From assembly GCA_026984455.1 (NCBI GenBank), contig JALSSC010000064.1, positions 39,363 to 103,362 on the forward strand: 64,000 nucleotides of DNA, in the 5' to 3' direction. The notes below the pieces were generated by a model that did no database searches, had not been told where the DNA came from, and saw only the letters and a list, made by a program, of their open reading frames with translations. This DNA comes from Chromatiaceae bacterium. GTDB lineage: Bacteria; Pseudomonadota; Gammaproteobacteria; Chromatiales; Chromatiaceae. A program made the translations under genes and the position numbers. Positions 5,391 to 47,087 of this stretch are shown here, piece by piece (positions within the stretch are counted from its first letter, which is position 1; each line of letters starts with the position of its first letter).

Positions 5391-5595
5391 TATACCCATC
5401 GCATGTGTAGATTTGTTGTTCCTTGGTCCGCAAACGCGACCTCGCTGTGCCATTCCTCGTCTCTCGCGGTGTTCCTCGTGCCCCTGGGCAGGGTGCGGAA
5501 GCGGGTCATAGCGGGGACTATGGCAGGCTCTCGCAACATTTCCCAGAGGGGCAGGGGCGCCGTAGCGAAAGAAATATTCACGTGGGGGCGGCGGT
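5391..5595 (+). mobile_element. MITE-like foldback repeat, copy A (degenerate right end)
   Basis: The left end TATACCCATCGCATGTG and the core GTGTTCCTCGTGCCCCTGGGCAGGGTGCGGAAGCGGGTCATAGCGGGGACTATGGC align with copies at 10814, 14573, 23093, 25123, 41365 and 46955. It lies between folD and the bEBP gene, 24 bp from the bEBP start. Confidence 0.6.
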
Positions 5596-5828
5596 GATGC
5601 CTGTCTGGCAGGGAAGCCCCTCCTGGGCCTTTCCTCCCCGCCCGATTCCCAAACCGGGATTGTTCGTCTGATAGGTGAAAACACTATAACGATCGAACAG
5701 CTCCCGCCAGTGCCGCGCTGCCGCCTTCTTGGCCAGGGCCGGTCCGCAGGGACTCACTCAGGGCATGAGGCGCGGCATCCAGGTGGATGGTCTTGAGCGT
5801 GCCTGTCACCAGCGGCCCGCTGACGCGC

Positions 5829-6695
5829 TCATGCCTCGTCTCCCCCCATGTGCCGGATGGCCGCTTCGAGGGTATTCTCCAACAGGCTGGCGATGGTCAT
5901 GGGGCCGACCCCGCCGGGGACCGGGGTGATCCAGGCGGCGCGTTCCGCGGCCGTGGCGAAGTCCACGTCACCCACCAGTCTGCCCTCCGCGGTGCGGTTG
6001 ATGCCCACGTCCACGACCAGGGCGCCGGGTTTGATCCAGTCACCGGGGACGAAGGCCGGGCGGCCGATGGCCACCACCAGGATGTCGGCGCCGCGGGCCT
6101 TGTCCGCGAGGTTGTGGGTACGGCTGTGGCAGACGCTGATGGTGCAGCGGGCGGCGAGTAGCTCCAGGGCCATGGGTCGGCCGACGATGTTGGACTGGCC
6201 GATGACCACCGCGTCCTTGCCCTCCAGGGGCTGGCCGGTGCGCTCCAGGAGGGTCATGATGCCCTTGGGGGTGCAGGAGCGCAGCAGGGGCATACGCAGG
6301 GCCAGGCGGCCGACGTTGTAGGGATGGAAGCCGTCCACGTCCTTCGCCGGGTGGATCCGCTCGATCACCGCTTCGGGGTCGATACCCGCCGGCAGGGGCA
6401 GTTGCACCAGGATACCGTCCACGCTGGGGTCTTCGTTGAGGCGATCGATGAGTTCGAGCAGATGGGTCTCGCCAGTGTCGGCCGGGAGGTGGTGGGGGTG
6501 GGAGCGGAAGCCCGCCTCCTGACAGGCGCGTTCCTTGTTGCGTACATACACCTGGGAGGCGGGATCCGCCCCCACCAGGATCACGGCCAGCCCGGGCGGT
6601 CGGCCATAGGCCTCGGCGAAGAGGGCGCTCTGGCCTTTCAGATCGGCTCGGATTTCGGCGGCGATGGCCTTGCCGTCCAGGATACGTGCGCTCAT
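5829..6695 (-). CDS. folD: bifunctional methylenetetrahydrofolate dehydrogenase / methenyl-THF cyclohydrolase
   Basis: Track ORF of 288 aa: [20 protein letters not shown]...[10 protein letters not shown]...[15 protein letters not shown]...[14 protein letters not shown]. Canonical FolD motifs. Confidence 0.95.
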
Positions 6696-7348
6696 GGGCT
6701 GTCCTCGGGGGATGGTGGGGATGCGGTGGGGGCGGAGGCCTCACAGGGGTGGGGCGCGGCGCCGTCCGCCAGGGATTCGATTTCATGCAGGCGCCCGGCG
6801 GCGGCCCTCGCCTCCACCACGTAGCTCTCGTCTTCCACCCGACGCGGGCGGATCTCGGCCGTGACACCCAGGCCGGCCAGTTCCTTCAGGCGTGTCGCGG
6901 CGCGCTCGCGGCTGGCGTAGAGACCCAGGGAGAGGGCCCCCGCGAGATGTCCGCGTCTGAAACGCCAACTGTCCGCGATGCCTTTGGCGGCCAGGGCCTC
7001 GGGGCTCAGGTTCGCATCCAACCGGTCCGCGGGTATCAGCACCCAGAAGCCAGCGGTACGGGCGTGGCTGATGACCCGGATACGGGCCTGCGCGGGCGCG
7101 GCGGCAAGACGTTCCAGGAGACGCAGGGCGGGATCCTGATCGCTGAAGGGACCGAAGGCGATGCAGCCTTCGGGTTCCGCGGGGGGCGGCGCGACGGGGG
7201 GCTTGGGCAGATCCCAGGGCAGGACCCGCACCGCTGGCGCGGGGGCCGGGGGAGGTGGGGACGCGGCCGGGTGGGGAGCACGGGTCAGGCCCCAGGCCGC
7301 CACCAGCAGATTGCACAGCAACAGCAGGAAGAACAACCAACGACTCAC
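6692..7348 (-). CDS. SPOR domain-containing membrane protein
   Basis: 218 aa with an N-terminal TM helix, a Pro-rich linker and a C-terminal SPOR-like repeat. It has the usual position directly downstream of coaX and a 4-nt overlap with folD. Confidence 0.65.
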
Positions 7349-8070
7349 AGATTCCTCCCACTGAAGGCGGCGAGGCCCTCCAATACCAGATAGGGACGTA
7401 CCTCGGCCGGTCCAAGTCCACGGATCAGGTCTCCGGCATCGCCGCCGGTGAGCACCAGACGGGCCTCACCGGGGAGGTGGCGGCGGGCCCGGTCGATGGC
7501 ACCCAGGACGGCGGCCTGAATGCCGTTGCGGATGCCGCCGGCGGTGTCGCGGGCGACGAACTCGGCGGCACTGCCGGGACCGGGGTCGGGGATGTGGGTG
7601 CCCTCCAGGAGACAGGTGCGCATACGCCGGGGTCCGGGCAGAATGAGGCCTCCGGGATGGTGGCCGCCGGCCTCGAGGAGGTCCAGGGTGAGGGCGCTGC
7701 CGGCGTCCACCACCAGGCAGGGGGCGAGGCCGAGGCGCCAGGCCGCGAGCAGGGCCAGCCAGCGGTCGCTGCCGAGGCGTTGTGGATGGCGGTAGGCGGT
7801 CTCCAGGCCCTGGAAAGGGGTCTGCACCCGGACGAACTCGGGTTCCAGGTGCCACAAGCGTGCACACAGCCGCCCGAGGATCCAGGCGTTGTCCTCGCCG
7901 GCCACGTTGGAGGCCACCACGGCCTCTGGCGGGGGCAGCCCGGCCCAGGCGGGCGCCAGCTTCTTCTCCCAGCCGCGCACCAAGTGTACGGGGGCGCCGG
8001 GGTGGAGGGTTTCCCCCTCCAGCCGGGCCCATTTGAGGCGGGCGTTGCCCAGGTCCACGAGGACTCTCAT
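7345..8070 (-). CDS. coaX: type III pantothenate kinase
   Basis: Internal start MRVLVDLGNARLKWA... within track ORF 7345..9246, with an ATGA overlap with the birA stop. The DLGN, GSDRW and VVDAGSALT motifs are those of CoaX. Confidence 0.9.
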   Translation of the reverse strand: MRVLVDLGNARLKWARLEGETLHPGAPVHLVRGWEKKLAPAWAGLPPPEAVVASNVAGEDNAWILGRLCARLWHLEPEFVRVQTPFQGLETAYRHPQRLGSDRWLALLAAWRLGLAPCLVVDAGSALTLDLLEAGGHHPGGLILPGPRRMRTCLLEGTHIPDPGPGSAAEFVARDTAGGIRNGIQAAVLGAIDRARRHLPGEARLVLTGGDAGDLIRGLGPAEVRPYLVLEGLAAFSGRNL

Positions 8071-46233: not shown

Positions 46234-46518
46234 GTGGCGATGACCTGGTACCGATGGGACGGGGATGATCTGGTGCTCGACCTGCGGGTCCAACCCAAGG
46301 CCAGCCGGGACCGCCTGGTGGGCCCCCACGGGGAGGACGCCTTCAAGGTCACCCTCACCGCGCCACCGGTGGACGGCAAGGCCAATGCCCACCTGGTCCG
46401 TTTCCTGGCCAAGGCCTTCGGTGTGCCACGGGCGCGGGTGGTACTCGAGAGCGGGCAGGCCGGGCGCCGCAAGCGGGTCCGGATCGTCGCCCCCGGTAAG
46501 CTCCCGCTATCCCTCTGA
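46234..46518 (+). CDS. yggU: DUF167 (YggU) family protein
   Basis: 94 aa: LDLRVQPKASRDRLVG...LKVTLTAPPVDGKANAHLVRFLAKAFGV. Confidence 0.85.
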   Translation: MAMTWYRWDGDDLVLDLRVQPKASRDRLVGPHGEDAFKVTLTAPPVDGKANAHLVRFLAKAFGVPRARVVLESGQAGRRKRVRIVAPGKLPLSL

Positions 46519-46826
46519 TTTCATGCCACGGAGGCGTGGGATTCACTGGCAGGCAGTTGAAGGACGGGGTATCCCGCCGGACTGTGCGCGGTATATGGAG
46601 GGGCTGCTCTTTTGAAGGCCGCAAGCCGTCGAAGGCGAAGGTACCGGGACCCTGTGTTTCCCGGTCCCGCGGTCGAAAGAGTCCAGGGATGGGTTTTTTC
46701 CGACACCCGGCTAAAGTTACGGGCATGCCGGCCGCCAACAACGGTGAAGGACGACCGAGGTCGTTCATCGTTTCCTCCTCCAGCGCTCGGACAGGAATCC
46801 AGATCAGCCTGTCAGACGGCGCCTTG

Positions 46827-46864
46827 CCCATCCCGGCGGTGGCCTGCCCGGATGGGTTTTTTTT
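46827..46864 (+). terminator. strong intrinsic terminator (plus strand)
   Basis: CCCATCCCGGC-ggtggcct-GCCCGGATGGG (11 bp with 1 mismatch) followed by T8. It lies 310 nt after the yggU stop. Confidence 0.7.
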
Positions 46865-46954
46865 GCGGGGGGCTGTTCGCATGGGGTGACGCTGCCGCCG
46901 GTCAGATGACGCCCACCGGGACAGTACCGGTCCTGGCCCCGTTGCAGGAGAACA

Positions 46955-47087
46955 GGCCATCGTGGGGGCGCCTGGAGAGGACGCGGCAGCGAGTCAGGAC
47001 GGGGATGGCGAGCCATCGCTGCACCACTGACGAGTGTGAGGGATGGCGGCAGTAGCGAAATATTCATACTCACGTGCGACGGGTATA
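46955..47087 (+). mobile_element. MITE-like foldback repeat, copy E (right half only, or degenerate)
   Basis: GACGCGGCAGCGAGTCAGGACGGGGATGGCGAGCCATCGC...GGCGGCAGTAGCGAAATATTCATACTCACGTGCGACGGGTATA aligns with the right half of copy C. The left boundary is unclear. Confidence 0.5.

Follow-up and report, generated by a model that had tools for sequence, protein, structure and literature searches.

A foldback repeat between genes

The window, a stretch of 64,000 nucleotides with a GC content of 66%, comes from a Chromatiaceae metagenome-assembled genome (MAG) near Thiohalocapsa, of free-living type. Seven copies of a foldback repeat of 160 to 205 bp are found in it, every one intergenic (Table 1). 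The start of a sigma-54 activator gene (5367, minus strand) is 24 nt from copy A, which lies upstream of it and downstream of folD; copy B lies 10 nt upstream of the ATG of an M61 peptidase gene (10804) and 174 nt downstream of the stop codon of an ABC transporter gene (11181). Copy C separates the divergent starts of an ABC transporter gene (14446, minus) and a DUF4342 gene (14796, plus), and copy D is placed between the start of an AAA_33/APH gene (23037, minus) and the ATG of a YgaP-like gene (23340). A TonB-dependent receptor gene with its ATG at 25427 has copy E inside its leader, 3' of a cobalamin riboswitch aptamer. Copy F separates two convergent genes, feoC (stop at 41346) and one for a PilT/T2SSE-type ATPase (stop at 41758); copy G comes after a terminator-like hairpin and ahead of the stop codon of a DUF3426 gene (47179). 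Five of the copies end no more than 50 nt before a start codon. Gene calls on public contigs agree with the first-pass annotation that all copies are intergenic, and they place the starts beside copies A, C, D, and E at 5367, 14446, 23037, and 25427, so the long ORFs that it had cited as inflated by the repeats do run into the elements.

Table 1. Copies of the foldback repeat and associated features in the window
Feature	Position	Strand	Match	Identity to consensus	Form
Copy A	5391..5597	+	nhmmer 5389-5600, E = 4e-52	84%	202-bp type; 42-nt module adjoins left TIR; right TIR decayed
Copy B	10815..11006	-	nhmmer 10808-11013, E = 2e-56	89%	Element proper 10817-11004
Copy C	14573..14755	-	nhmmer 14566-14758, E = 2e-38	74%	Element proper 14575-14753; strongly decayed
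Possible eighth copy	15171..15344	-	nhmmer, weak		Very decayed
Possible solo terminus	16834..16851	-	15/18 TIR positions		In intergenic gap
Copy D	23093..23298	+	nhmmer 23092-23305, E = 4e-70	96% (consensus built from another metagenome)	Element proper 23095-23296 (202 bp); best preserved of the seven
Cobalamin riboswitch aptamer	24954..25133	+	Rfam RF00174, 74 bits, E = 2e-16		Immediately 5' of copy E
Copy E	25125..25303	+	nhmmer 25122-25310, E = 1e-36	84% (to 160-bp consensus)	160-bp type with a 19-nt palindromic insertion
Copy F	41358..41535	-	nhmmer 41358-41535, E = 4e-30	75%	160-bp type, decayed
Copy G	46907..47087	+	nhmmer 46908-47093, E = 8e-33	77%	Left half decayed, right TIR intact, nearly full length

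An nhmmer profile was made from the seven copies given in the first-pass annotation and used to scan the window; it returned exactly seven strong matches, the number of copies listed there. The possible eighth copy gave E = 8e-6 with a profile of the 202-bp form (c2_202) and 1e-3 with the window profile, and falls within a called hypothetical ORF without a Pfam match. Allowing up to three mismatches, the terminal inverted repeat (TIR) occurs nine times in the window against 0.05 expected from shuffled sequence, which bears out the earlier report of TIRs of about 20 bp; the ninth occurrence, the possible solo terminus, adjoins DNA unlike the family (nhmmer E = 3). The self-complementarity reported for the repeat is likewise evident in copy D, which folds at -115 kcal/mol (z = -8.8).

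Copy ages are graded, identity to the consensus running from 74 to 96% among the window copies, with D and B best kept and C, F, and G most decayed. The earlier ranking thus stands for B as well kept and for F and G as decayed, but not for C, which at 74% cannot be called well preserved; G, previously described as partial, is a nearly full-length decayed copy spanning about 46907-47087. The same loci are present in three independent assemblies at 99.9 to 100% identity. Copy D is also present in the NCBI MAG copy of its locus, and one Logan contig terminates within it.

Ends, subfamilies, and distribution of the family

An exact 17-nt terminus pattern, CACGTGCGACGGGTATA, was used as the query for further loci. 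It matched at least 117 metagenome loci exactly and was also found in two "Ca. Thiosymbion" MAGs, where paired TIRs lie 160 to 162 bp apart. The matches listed include about 100 further copies in other assemblies and 104 TIR pairs, which represent 88 distinct sites; at these the family ends are TACCCGTCGCACGTGAATAT...ATATTCACGTGCGACGGGTA. The 20-bp TIR is TACCCGTCGCACGTGAATAT, with the inverted TIR at the other end. The element is a 160-bp unit in which the TIR and its inverted counterpart enclose a core of about 120 bp, and a 202-bp form carries in addition a 42-nt module that adjoins either TIR. The whole is a long imperfect palindrome of constant unit length (160 to 162 bp), in which helix 1 is paired at 98.5% over 65 copies. 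Elements span 160 to 221 bp and have no coding capacity; the only ORFs in them are long spurious ones that enter from neighboring genes.

Three subfamilies can be distinguished, and the window copies belong to c2. Subfamilies c1 and c2 share 20/20 and 19/20 TIR positions, whereas their interiors are only about 71% identical, close to the value for the host folD genes (about 73% at the DNA level); on sequence comparison, the near identity of the termini argues for selection acting on them. Subfamily c3 keeps approximately the outer 15 nt of the termini, and its interior is barely alignable.

The copies are dispersed: in addition to the seven in the window, 77 to 88 distinct sites were found in other loci among the matches listed, with unrelated flanking genes. 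Tandem, divergent, and convergent gene arrangements surround them, and elements occur in both orientations. An exact-terminus scan of species-representative genomes, a collection that does not include the source species, gave eight single matches and none in Thiohalocapsa. Six of the eight are chance matches, without GAATAT after the 17-mer; the other two are real Thiosymbion copies. No copy was present in 66 kb from relatives whose neighboring ABC transporter shows 77 to 88% protein identity, and synteny at the sites is not conserved. In homologues of the ABC transporter, retrieved in order to see whether sites B and C are empty there, synteny was lost beyond the ABC gene pair, and the closest contig was too short. 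A literature search with the TIR string returned no paper containing it in a relevant context. Copies in this genome are mostly old, six being 74 to 89% identical to the consensus and one 96%; in another metagenomic relative and in "Ca. Thiosymbion"-type symbionts, the family is of more recent date and its copies are more alike.

Insertion at TA dinucleotides

Copies B, C, and D are flanked by TA on both sides, copy A on the left side only, and copy G on the right side only; the flanks of copy E are CA and TC. The first-pass annotation had described TA on both sides of the better-preserved elements, and this extends beyond the window, to 79 of the 88 distinct sites among the matches listed. 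In the same matches, TA is found at 63/71 termini on the side left free by the search pattern, and positions -3 to -5 are AT rich. The symmetry of the TIRs means that the sequence by itself does not tell a duplicated TA from one belonging to the element. Filled and empty versions of a site were compared. The filled site L126 reads ...ATTAAGT-TA-[TACCC...GGGTA]-TA-AGTG, and the empty paralogues L068 and L089 read, without interruption, ...ATTAAGT-TA-AGCG; a second filled/empty case is provided by L089 versus L106 and L126. A single TA at the empty sites, which are paralogous repeats rather than orthologous loci, and TA-element-TA at the filled ones show that the TA is a target duplication. In locus-to-locus comparisons across element sites, all loci having been selected for carrying the TIR, 39/39 listed were filled, and no polymorphism among strains was observed. 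When flanks were joined and used in a BLAST search for orthologous empty sites, the matches were nothing but filled orthologues, a single deletion variant (L023), and empty sites of the paralogous kind.

Search for a partner transposase

The first-pass annotation saw no transposase near the repeats, and none turned up when about 85 kb of the source contig (window plus flanks) was searched. The search was equally negative in 1.2 Mb of related loci, where a regular expression for the IS630/Tc1 motif SPxLNPxE gave no match in six-frame translations. Solo TIRs proved to be truncated copies, or copies interrupted by other insertions; no autonomous element was found in the DNA adjoining them, and the ORFs beside them are housekeeping genes (NhaA, DapA, DctQM, and PrmC). 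Long TIR pairs, 0.4 to 3.6 kb apart, were also considered as a possible autonomous element and rejected, as their interiors hold radA, cNMP-binding, short-chain dehydrogenase, and similar genes, and no transposases. A viral contig scan and a plasmid blastn search gave no autonomous partner, nor does the TIR match any entry, those for IS630 included, in the IS end table published for Thiohalocapsa PB-PSB1. The autonomous partner with the same TIRs that had been proposed as a target for searching was thus not found in the contig, the 1.2 Mb of loci, the viral and plasmid sequences, or the IS table; it may lie outside the sampled DNA. Judged from the TA duplication alone, the partner is most probably a DDE transposase of IS630/Tc1-mariner type; some IS5-group elements (IS427/ISL2) likewise make duplications of 2 to 3 bp. 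IS630-family transposases are numerous in Thiohalocapsa genomes (PMC9296519) and, among the transposases expressed by the Olavius gamma1 symbiont, form the largest group (PMC3684830).

One strand folds better than the other

One strand of the element folds about 20 kcal/mol better than its complement in 56 of 57 c1 copies and all 41 c2 copies, and likewise in c3, because of G·U pairs and compensatory changes. Transition-type mismatches in the foldback are mostly G·U on the favored strand (8 versus 2, 9 versus 3, and 12 versus 3). RNAalifold gave a poor consensus on 65 copies, with a covariation term of only -1.0 kcal/mol, and a hand-drawn foldback was tested instead; in its central helix, four pairs differ between subfamilies by compensatory changes. 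Changes in individual copies, counted as distinct events, showed no significant excess of G·U-preserving ones (22 versus 18; 11 versus 6). Double-strand cut-and-paste transposition neither requires a strand-asymmetric foldback nor explains it.

The asymmetry, the G·U bias, and the compensatory pairs would all suit elements that move or persist as a folded single strand of DNA or RNA, in a REPIN/RAYT-like or IS200/IS605-like manner with an HUH enzyme, the TA being a target or cleavage motif; that symmetric TIRs leave duplicated and element-borne TA inseparable by sequence is also in keeping with this. We consider it very unlikely. Conserved 20-bp TIRs with a TA placed symmetrically at either side are typical of DDE transposons, and the ends of REP/REPIN and IS200/IS605 elements are not known to have TIRs or duplications. 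In addition, no Y1/HUH or RAYT-like gene is among those that Pfam annotates in the window, and the individual copies lack the significant G·U-preserving excess. A more limited proposal is that the one-strand hairpin takes part in propagation, either because one stage is single-stranded DNA or RNA or because a transposase not of the IS630 type requires it, which would place the family in an orphan foldback class of the ERIC/Correia kind. Strand asymmetry in three subfamilies, the compensatory changes, the constant unit length, and the absence of a partner in 1.2 Mb favor such a proposal, which we regard as a long shot.

The position of the copies raises a different explanation, that they function in cis as RNA or DNA modules, originally or by later recruitment, and are kept by host selection as leader hairpins, RNase targets, terminators, or parts of promoters. 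Their closeness to start codons, the site of copy E between a riboswitch and its gene, and the stable, strand-asymmetric foldback are consistent with this, and between same-direction genes c1 is oriented 8 to 1 with the stable strand in the mRNA (P = 0.04). Subfamily c2, to which the window copies belong, shows no orientation bias (5 versus 7), however, and individual copies decay without a significant strand preference, in the window down to 74% of the consensus and with broken TIRs. There is no copy in the loci fetched from relatives, nor an Rfam match. A scan for outward promoters and terminators around copy E, the only copy scanned, gave no consensus site within or flanking the element, and inspection of the element termini by eye revealed no well-spaced -35 box. 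Nearness to gene starts would be expected of a preference for TA/AT-rich targets in a GC-rich genome. On balance, host-selected modules are an unlikely explanation.

High predicted folding stability and a metagenome assembly as the source might also suggest a nonmobile family of structured RNA genes, or an artifact of chance or of assembly. This is hardly credible given the recovery of the same loci from independent assemblies, the TA duplication and empty sites, the variable contexts and both orientations, and the very small RNAalifold covariation term. Copy D had no Rfam match at the gathering score or at E up to 1, and one c1 copy matched only a snoRNA family at chance level (16 bits). The conserved-RNA alternative that the first-pass annotation had named thus finds no Rfam family to support it, and the copies do not sit at orthologous positions in the loci compared from relatives.

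Discussion

The repeats are very probably a family of nonautonomous DNA transposons, or MITEs, as was proposed at first pass: they are short and noncoding, with 20-bp TIRs, dispersed intergenic copies, and a TA duplication at paralogous empty sites. The copy family, its TIRs and TA duplication, its dispersal, its lineage restriction, and the absence of a nearby transposase are observed directly. The element is of an ordinary kind, and the family is abundant in related sulfur bacteria too, symbionts of worms among them. We infer a cut-and-paste chemistry, in which a transposase encoded elsewhere in the genome, presumably a DDE enzyme of IS630/Tc1-mariner type, would bind both TIRs and excise the element. 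Reinsertion would take place where a TA dinucleotide lies in DNA that is locally AT rich, and the TA would be duplicated when the staggered cut of 2 nt is repaired. In a genome of 66% GC, AT-rich TA sites would lie mostly between genes, near promoters, start codons, and terminators, as the copies do; any effect on neighboring genes is likewise only presumed.

ERIC/IRU elements of Enterobacteriaceae and Yersinia are imperfect palindromes of about 130 to 160 bp, intergenic and often cotranscribed, which insert at TA with duplication and in which G·U pairs favor the hairpin of one strand; we know of no partner transposase for them. In size, palindromic structure, intergenic location, TA duplication, orphan status, and G·U strand asymmetry, the present family seems to resemble them, a likeness of architecture and behavior only. 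It differs in its occurrence in Chromatiaceae, without known sequence similarity, in a sharply conserved 20-mer TIR common to subfamilies with diverged interiors, and in its 42-nt module variants, which are not an ERIC feature. Correia elements (NEMIS/CREE) of Neisseria are MITEs of 100 to 160 bp with TIRs of about 26 bp, a TA duplication, hundreds of copies, and size variants in an internal segment, and to our knowledge they too are orphans without an identified transposase. On all of these points the family appears analogous, its TIR being about 20 bp. Promoters arise at Correia ends, which also carry an IHF site, and the transcripts are cut by RNase III; copy E, the only copy scanned here, has no promoter or terminator match, and the sequences are not known to be related. 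MITEs derived from IS630/Tc1-mariner elements, for example RUP of Streptococcus pneumoniae, have a TA duplication, short TIRs, and trans-mobilization by a DDE transposase, as is proposed here; RUP-type MITEs have an identified IS with matching ends, whereas none was found for this family in the DNA searched. REPINs are also dense intergenic foldback repeats with hairpins kept by compensatory changes, and they matter as single strands, as the present family may; unlike the present family, with TA at both ends, a 20-bp TIR, and no RAYT-like gene in the window, REPINs lack the combination of TIR and duplication and are tied to a RAYT gene. Within the same clade, the diversity-generating retroelement (DGR) loci of Thiohalocapsa sp. 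PB-PSB1 contain hairpin-forming short inverted repeats described as MITE-like, which were matched to the ends of specific PB-PSB1 IS elements (bioRxiv 10.1101/2023.09.22.558884); it is the end table of those elements that holds no counterpart of the TIR described here.

For annotation, the family matters in that it inflates ORF calls, breaks short-read assemblies, and occupies gene leaders. Its 20-bp terminus is common to a free-living-type Chromatiaceae MAG, another metagenomic relative, and the "Ca. Thiosymbion" symbionts of marine worms, host genomes known for transposase expansion, and the family is thus the mark of a transposase that was shared or exchanged. It also lends itself to strain typing and to the dating of bursts. 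Should a strand-specific hairpin turn out to be needed for movement, the family could shed light on the mobility of orphan MITEs, ERIC and Correia elements among them.

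Seven copies of one foldback element

The seven intervals occupied by a 160- to 205-bp foldback element with 20-bp terminal inverted repeats (TIRs) were combined into a nucleotide profile, which gave strong matches at exactly those places in the window (copies A to G; see the table), with E values of 4e-70 to 4e-30; beyond these it returned only reverse-strand echoes and a few weak matches. An 18-nt terminus, allowing up to 3 mismatches, occurs 9 times in the window, against 0.05 expected from shuffles, and the seven-copy family described in the first-pass annotation is therefore secure. 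The elements are bounded by the inverted pair TACCCGTCGCACGTG ... CACGTGCGACGGGTA; the aligned copies have termini and core in common, and indels account for the size range. The predicted fold of copy D has a free energy of -115 kcal/mol (z = -8.8); the GC content of the window is 66%. All seven copies are intergenic, as had been claimed. Since the true gene starts near copies lie at 5367, 14446, 23037, and 25427, the long open reading frames cited in the same annotation do extend past them into the elements and are inflated by the copies, as it proposed.

The window DNA is contained in a 187-kb ENA metagenome contig (ERZ27262647:k141_728654). The same region is present in the NCBI metagenome-assembled genome (MAG) GCA_054025075.1 (99.9%) and in two Logan run assemblies (100%), so the repeats are not an assembly artefact; one Logan contig terminates within copy D. 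The nearest named homologues of a neighboring ABC transporter are from Thiohalocapsa (76% identity), which places the source organism in the Chromatiaceae (Gammaproteobacteria). The window opens within a contractile-injection-system locus that runs past its left edge and encodes Pvc16_N, phage sheath, gp19-like tube, and CIS_tube proteins. A 791-aa open reading frame contains internal direct repeats at 459-nt spacing, which suggests a protein with possible tandem domains of ∼153 aa. ARAGORN called a "tRNA-???" with a two-base anticodon within an LppC-family gene; Rfam gives no support for this call, which is therefore probably a false positive.

Coordinates of the elements and associated features (identity is to a consensus from a different metagenome; L-numbers are loci fetched from outside assemblies by exact-terminus match)
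Feature	Sequence	Position	Strand	Detail
Copy A	Window	5391-5597	+	84% identity; 24 nt from start codon
Copy B	Window	10815-11006	-	89% identity; 10 nt from start codon
Copy C	Window	14573-14755	-	74% identity; 38 nt from start codon
Copy D	Window	23093-23298	+	96% identity; 41 nt from start codon
Copy E	Window	25125-25303	+	84% identity; in leader
Copy F	Window	41358-41535	-	75% identity
Copy G	Window	46907-47087	+	77% identity
Promoter-like site	Window	24930-24958		TTGACC-17-TAGAGT
B12 aptamer	Window	24954-∼25125		Rfam match 24954-25133 (RF00174, 74 bits)
Receptor gene ATG	Window	25427
Contractile-injection-system locus	Window	1-3384		Also L009 13312-20867
51-nt repeat	Window	1711-1761; 24662-24712
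∼95-nt repeat	Window	11018-11114; 46602-46698
791-aa open reading frame	Window	51654-54029	-
ARAGORN "tRNA-???"	Window	59467-59554
Copy with flipped center	L093	635-797
Copy with flipped center	L013	129-292
Host repeat	L068	4957-5137
Host repeat	L089	6104-6175
Host repeat	L106	2057-2133
Host repeat	L126	1260-1334
Host repeat	L023	3010-3131
152-nt element	L108	9093-9245		Absent at L086 7840
Broken c1 copy	L050	∼2190-2290
Broken c1 copy	L090	∼3200-3300

Three subfamilies with conserved termini

Databases outside the window were scanned with the exact terminus CACGTGCGACGGGTATA. Eight matches were obtained from 185,579 species-representative genomes; six were chance occurrences, and two, in MAGs of Ca. 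Thiosymbion ectosymbionts, have a second inverted terminus 160 to 162 bp away. JGI metagenome contigs gave at least 117 loci with the exact terminus, and about 100 further full-length elements were found among the matches listed. Clustering separated three subfamilies: c1, with 57 copies of about 162 bp, from a single set of samples (Ga0209453, Ga0209255, Ga0209049, Ga0056111, and Ga0049105) and the Thiosymbion MAGs; c2 (160 or 202 bp), from sample Ga0256841 and the window; and c3 (161 bp), with two copies. The 202-bp form consists of the 160-bp unit and a 42-nt module, which adjoins the left TIR, as in copies A to D, or, inverted, the right TIR; in two other copies (L093 and L013) the center is flipped relative to the arms. 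Such inversions of center or module imply that the inverted repeats within an element have recombined with each other.

The c1 and c2 consensus sequences agree at 20/20 and 19/20 terminal positions, whereas their interiors are 71% identical, and host folD shows about 73% DNA identity between the window and c1-type organisms. In c3 the outer ∼15 nt of the terminus are kept and the interior is barely alignable. The termini are thus conserved far above their surroundings, as expected of a protein-binding site. Median pairwise identity is 93 to 94% both within the Ga0256841 copies and within c1, compared with 74 to 96% identity to the consensus for the window copies; judged by these values, the family is of long standing here, with most copies decayed, and is younger in other genomes. 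A literature search that included papers on mobile elements of Thiohalocapsa and Thiosymbion found no description of the element, a MITE of an established type.

Target duplication and mobility

Among the matches listed, TA is found on both sides of the element in 79 of 88 distinct sites, and at 63 of 71 termini on the side left free by the search pattern; positions -3 to -5 favor A and T without further specificity. Because symmetric TIRs alone cannot separate a target duplication from a TA carried by the element, empty sites were sought. Orthologous comparisons among the fetched loci showed only filled sites, as expected given that every locus had been selected for the terminus. At least three independent insertions sit in another dispersed repeat, of which uninterrupted copies exist. 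The filled site in L126 reads ...CAATGCCATTAAGT-TA-[TACCC...GGGTA]-TA-AGTGTTACCGG, and the empty paralogues in L068 and L089 read ...CAATACTATTAAGT-TA-AGCGTTACCGG. Comparison of L089 with L106 and L126 gave the same outcome at a TA slightly deeper in the repeat, in a variant continuing GCTGCTGACC. What the filled sites have in addition is the element and 2 nt more, for which the simplest reading is duplication of a TA target by an element with ends TACCC...GGGTA; the duplication proposed earlier is thus upheld by paralogous, not orthologous, empty sites with a single TA. The host repeat (...CAATGCCATTAAGTTAGCTGCTGACCGCTTGTCGTGGTCGGTCAGGATGCGGAA...) occurs in c1-type organisms, and the independent insertions into its TTAAGTTA motif mark it as a local hotspot.

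Other mobile DNA was seen at the fetched loci. L108, from one sample, carries a second kind of MITE-like element, 152 nt long and bounded by GGACACCTTGAAAAATTC...GATTTTTCAAGGTGCCC; the orthologous locus L086 of another sample, otherwise 98% identical, lacks it. A family other than the one studied thus shows true insertion polymorphism in c1-type organisms. Two c1 copies (L050 and L090) are interrupted by a foreign mobile-element end, starting GGCTCTTTATGGATTCCAGACTGGTAGG, which resembles an ISL3-type end, and a c1 copy in L121 carries another, different insertion.

The first-pass annotation had named a conserved RNA at orthologous positions as the alternative to a mobile element. The element occurs in both orientations between tandem, divergent, and convergent gene pairs. 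No Rfam family matches it; at the gathering score, Rfam found only a cobalamin riboswitch and a tRNA-Pro in the window. Six loci of relatives, identified by their ABC transporter (77 to 88% identity) and totaling 66 kb, contain no copy even at E values up to 1; these are not strict empty sites, since synteny around copies B and C is not conserved there. The conserved-RNA pattern was thus not seen, and the MITE interpretation is supported by the roughly 100 outside copies among the matches listed, the TA duplication at paralogous empty sites, and the restriction to a lineage.

No transposase was found in the window, where Pfam annotation and called genes gave chromosomal housekeeping genes only, and the 12.6 kb beyond its ends contain neither a transposase nor an additional copy, in agreement with the earlier annotation. 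Searches for an autonomous partner with these TIRs found none in about 85 kb of the source contig, in 1.2 Mb of related loci, in viral contigs and plasmids, or in the published IS end table of Thiohalocapsa PB-PSB1. The TA duplication points to a partner that would belong to the IS630/Tc1-mariner superfamily; some IS5-group elements (IS427 and ISL2) likewise make 2- to 3-bp duplications. IS630-family transposases are plentiful in this clade, with 29 copies in Thiohalocapsa PB-PSB1 and 3 to 10 in other Thiohalocapsa genomes (PMC9296519), and among the transposase groups expressed by the Olavius gamma1 symbiont theirs is the largest (PMC3684830), which is circumstantial support for such a partner.

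Placement near genes

Four copies (A to D) come to within 50 nt of the start codon of the gene downstream, and a fifth (E) lies in a leader. Such placement is explained, without invoking function, by a preference for TA in the AT-rich DNA of a GC-rich genome. Copy E lies within the leader of a TonB-dependent receptor gene, which it parts from its cobalamin riboswitch, with 122 nt between element and ATG. In or adjoining copy E, the sole copy scanned, neither a promoter nor a terminator consensus was detected.

Two other short repeats were noted. The two places of a 51-nt repeat are 88% complementary, and one precedes the start of a minus-strand gene by ∼20 nt, the other by ∼100 nt; the repeat holds the hairpin GAAGAC-CTC-GTCTTC, and its 27-nt core occurs twice, against 0.00 expected. 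The copies of a ∼95-nt repeat (GCAAGCCGTCGAA...ACCGGGAC...TCCCGGT...GTCGAAAGAGTCCAGG), 70% alike and inverted, lie downstream of gene ends, and the first adjoins MITE copy B; such a repeat could be REP-like or associated with terminators.

A strand-specific foldback

In 56 of 57 c1 copies and in all 41 c2 copies, the strand termed "+" forms a fold ∼20 kcal/mol more stable than that of the opposite strand; c3 gives -88 versus -58 kcal/mol. Transition-type mismatches across the foldback that leave G·U on the "+" strand outnumber those that do not (c1, 8 versus 2; c2, 9 versus 3; c3, 12 versus 3), and the central helix has compensatory changes at four pairs between c1 and c2. Foldback pairing holds in 93% of cells, compared with 27 to 47% when the partners are slid.

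A double-strand cut-and-paste mechanism has no need of this asymmetry; a single-strand stage or a role at the RNA level would be an unproven rival or addition to the MITE interpretation. Counted once each, the changes within single copies are not significantly biased toward G·U-type over A·C-type (22 versus 18 in c1; 11 versus 6 in c2). G·U-type variants do sit in more copies (66 versus 36 cells in c1), which hints that constraint acts on multiplying lineages, not on each insertion. By crude gene calls and small counts, copies flanked by genes of the same direction split 8 to 1 by orientation in c1 (p = 0.04) and 5 to 7 in c2. The strand-asymmetric foldback recalls ERIC and Correia elements, orphan MITEs that duplicate TA and have hairpins with a role in RNA. 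As a MITE, the family is of use for annotation, for following how transposases are shared among the Chromatiaceae and symbionts of worms, and for its strand-specific hairpin in an orphan MITE.
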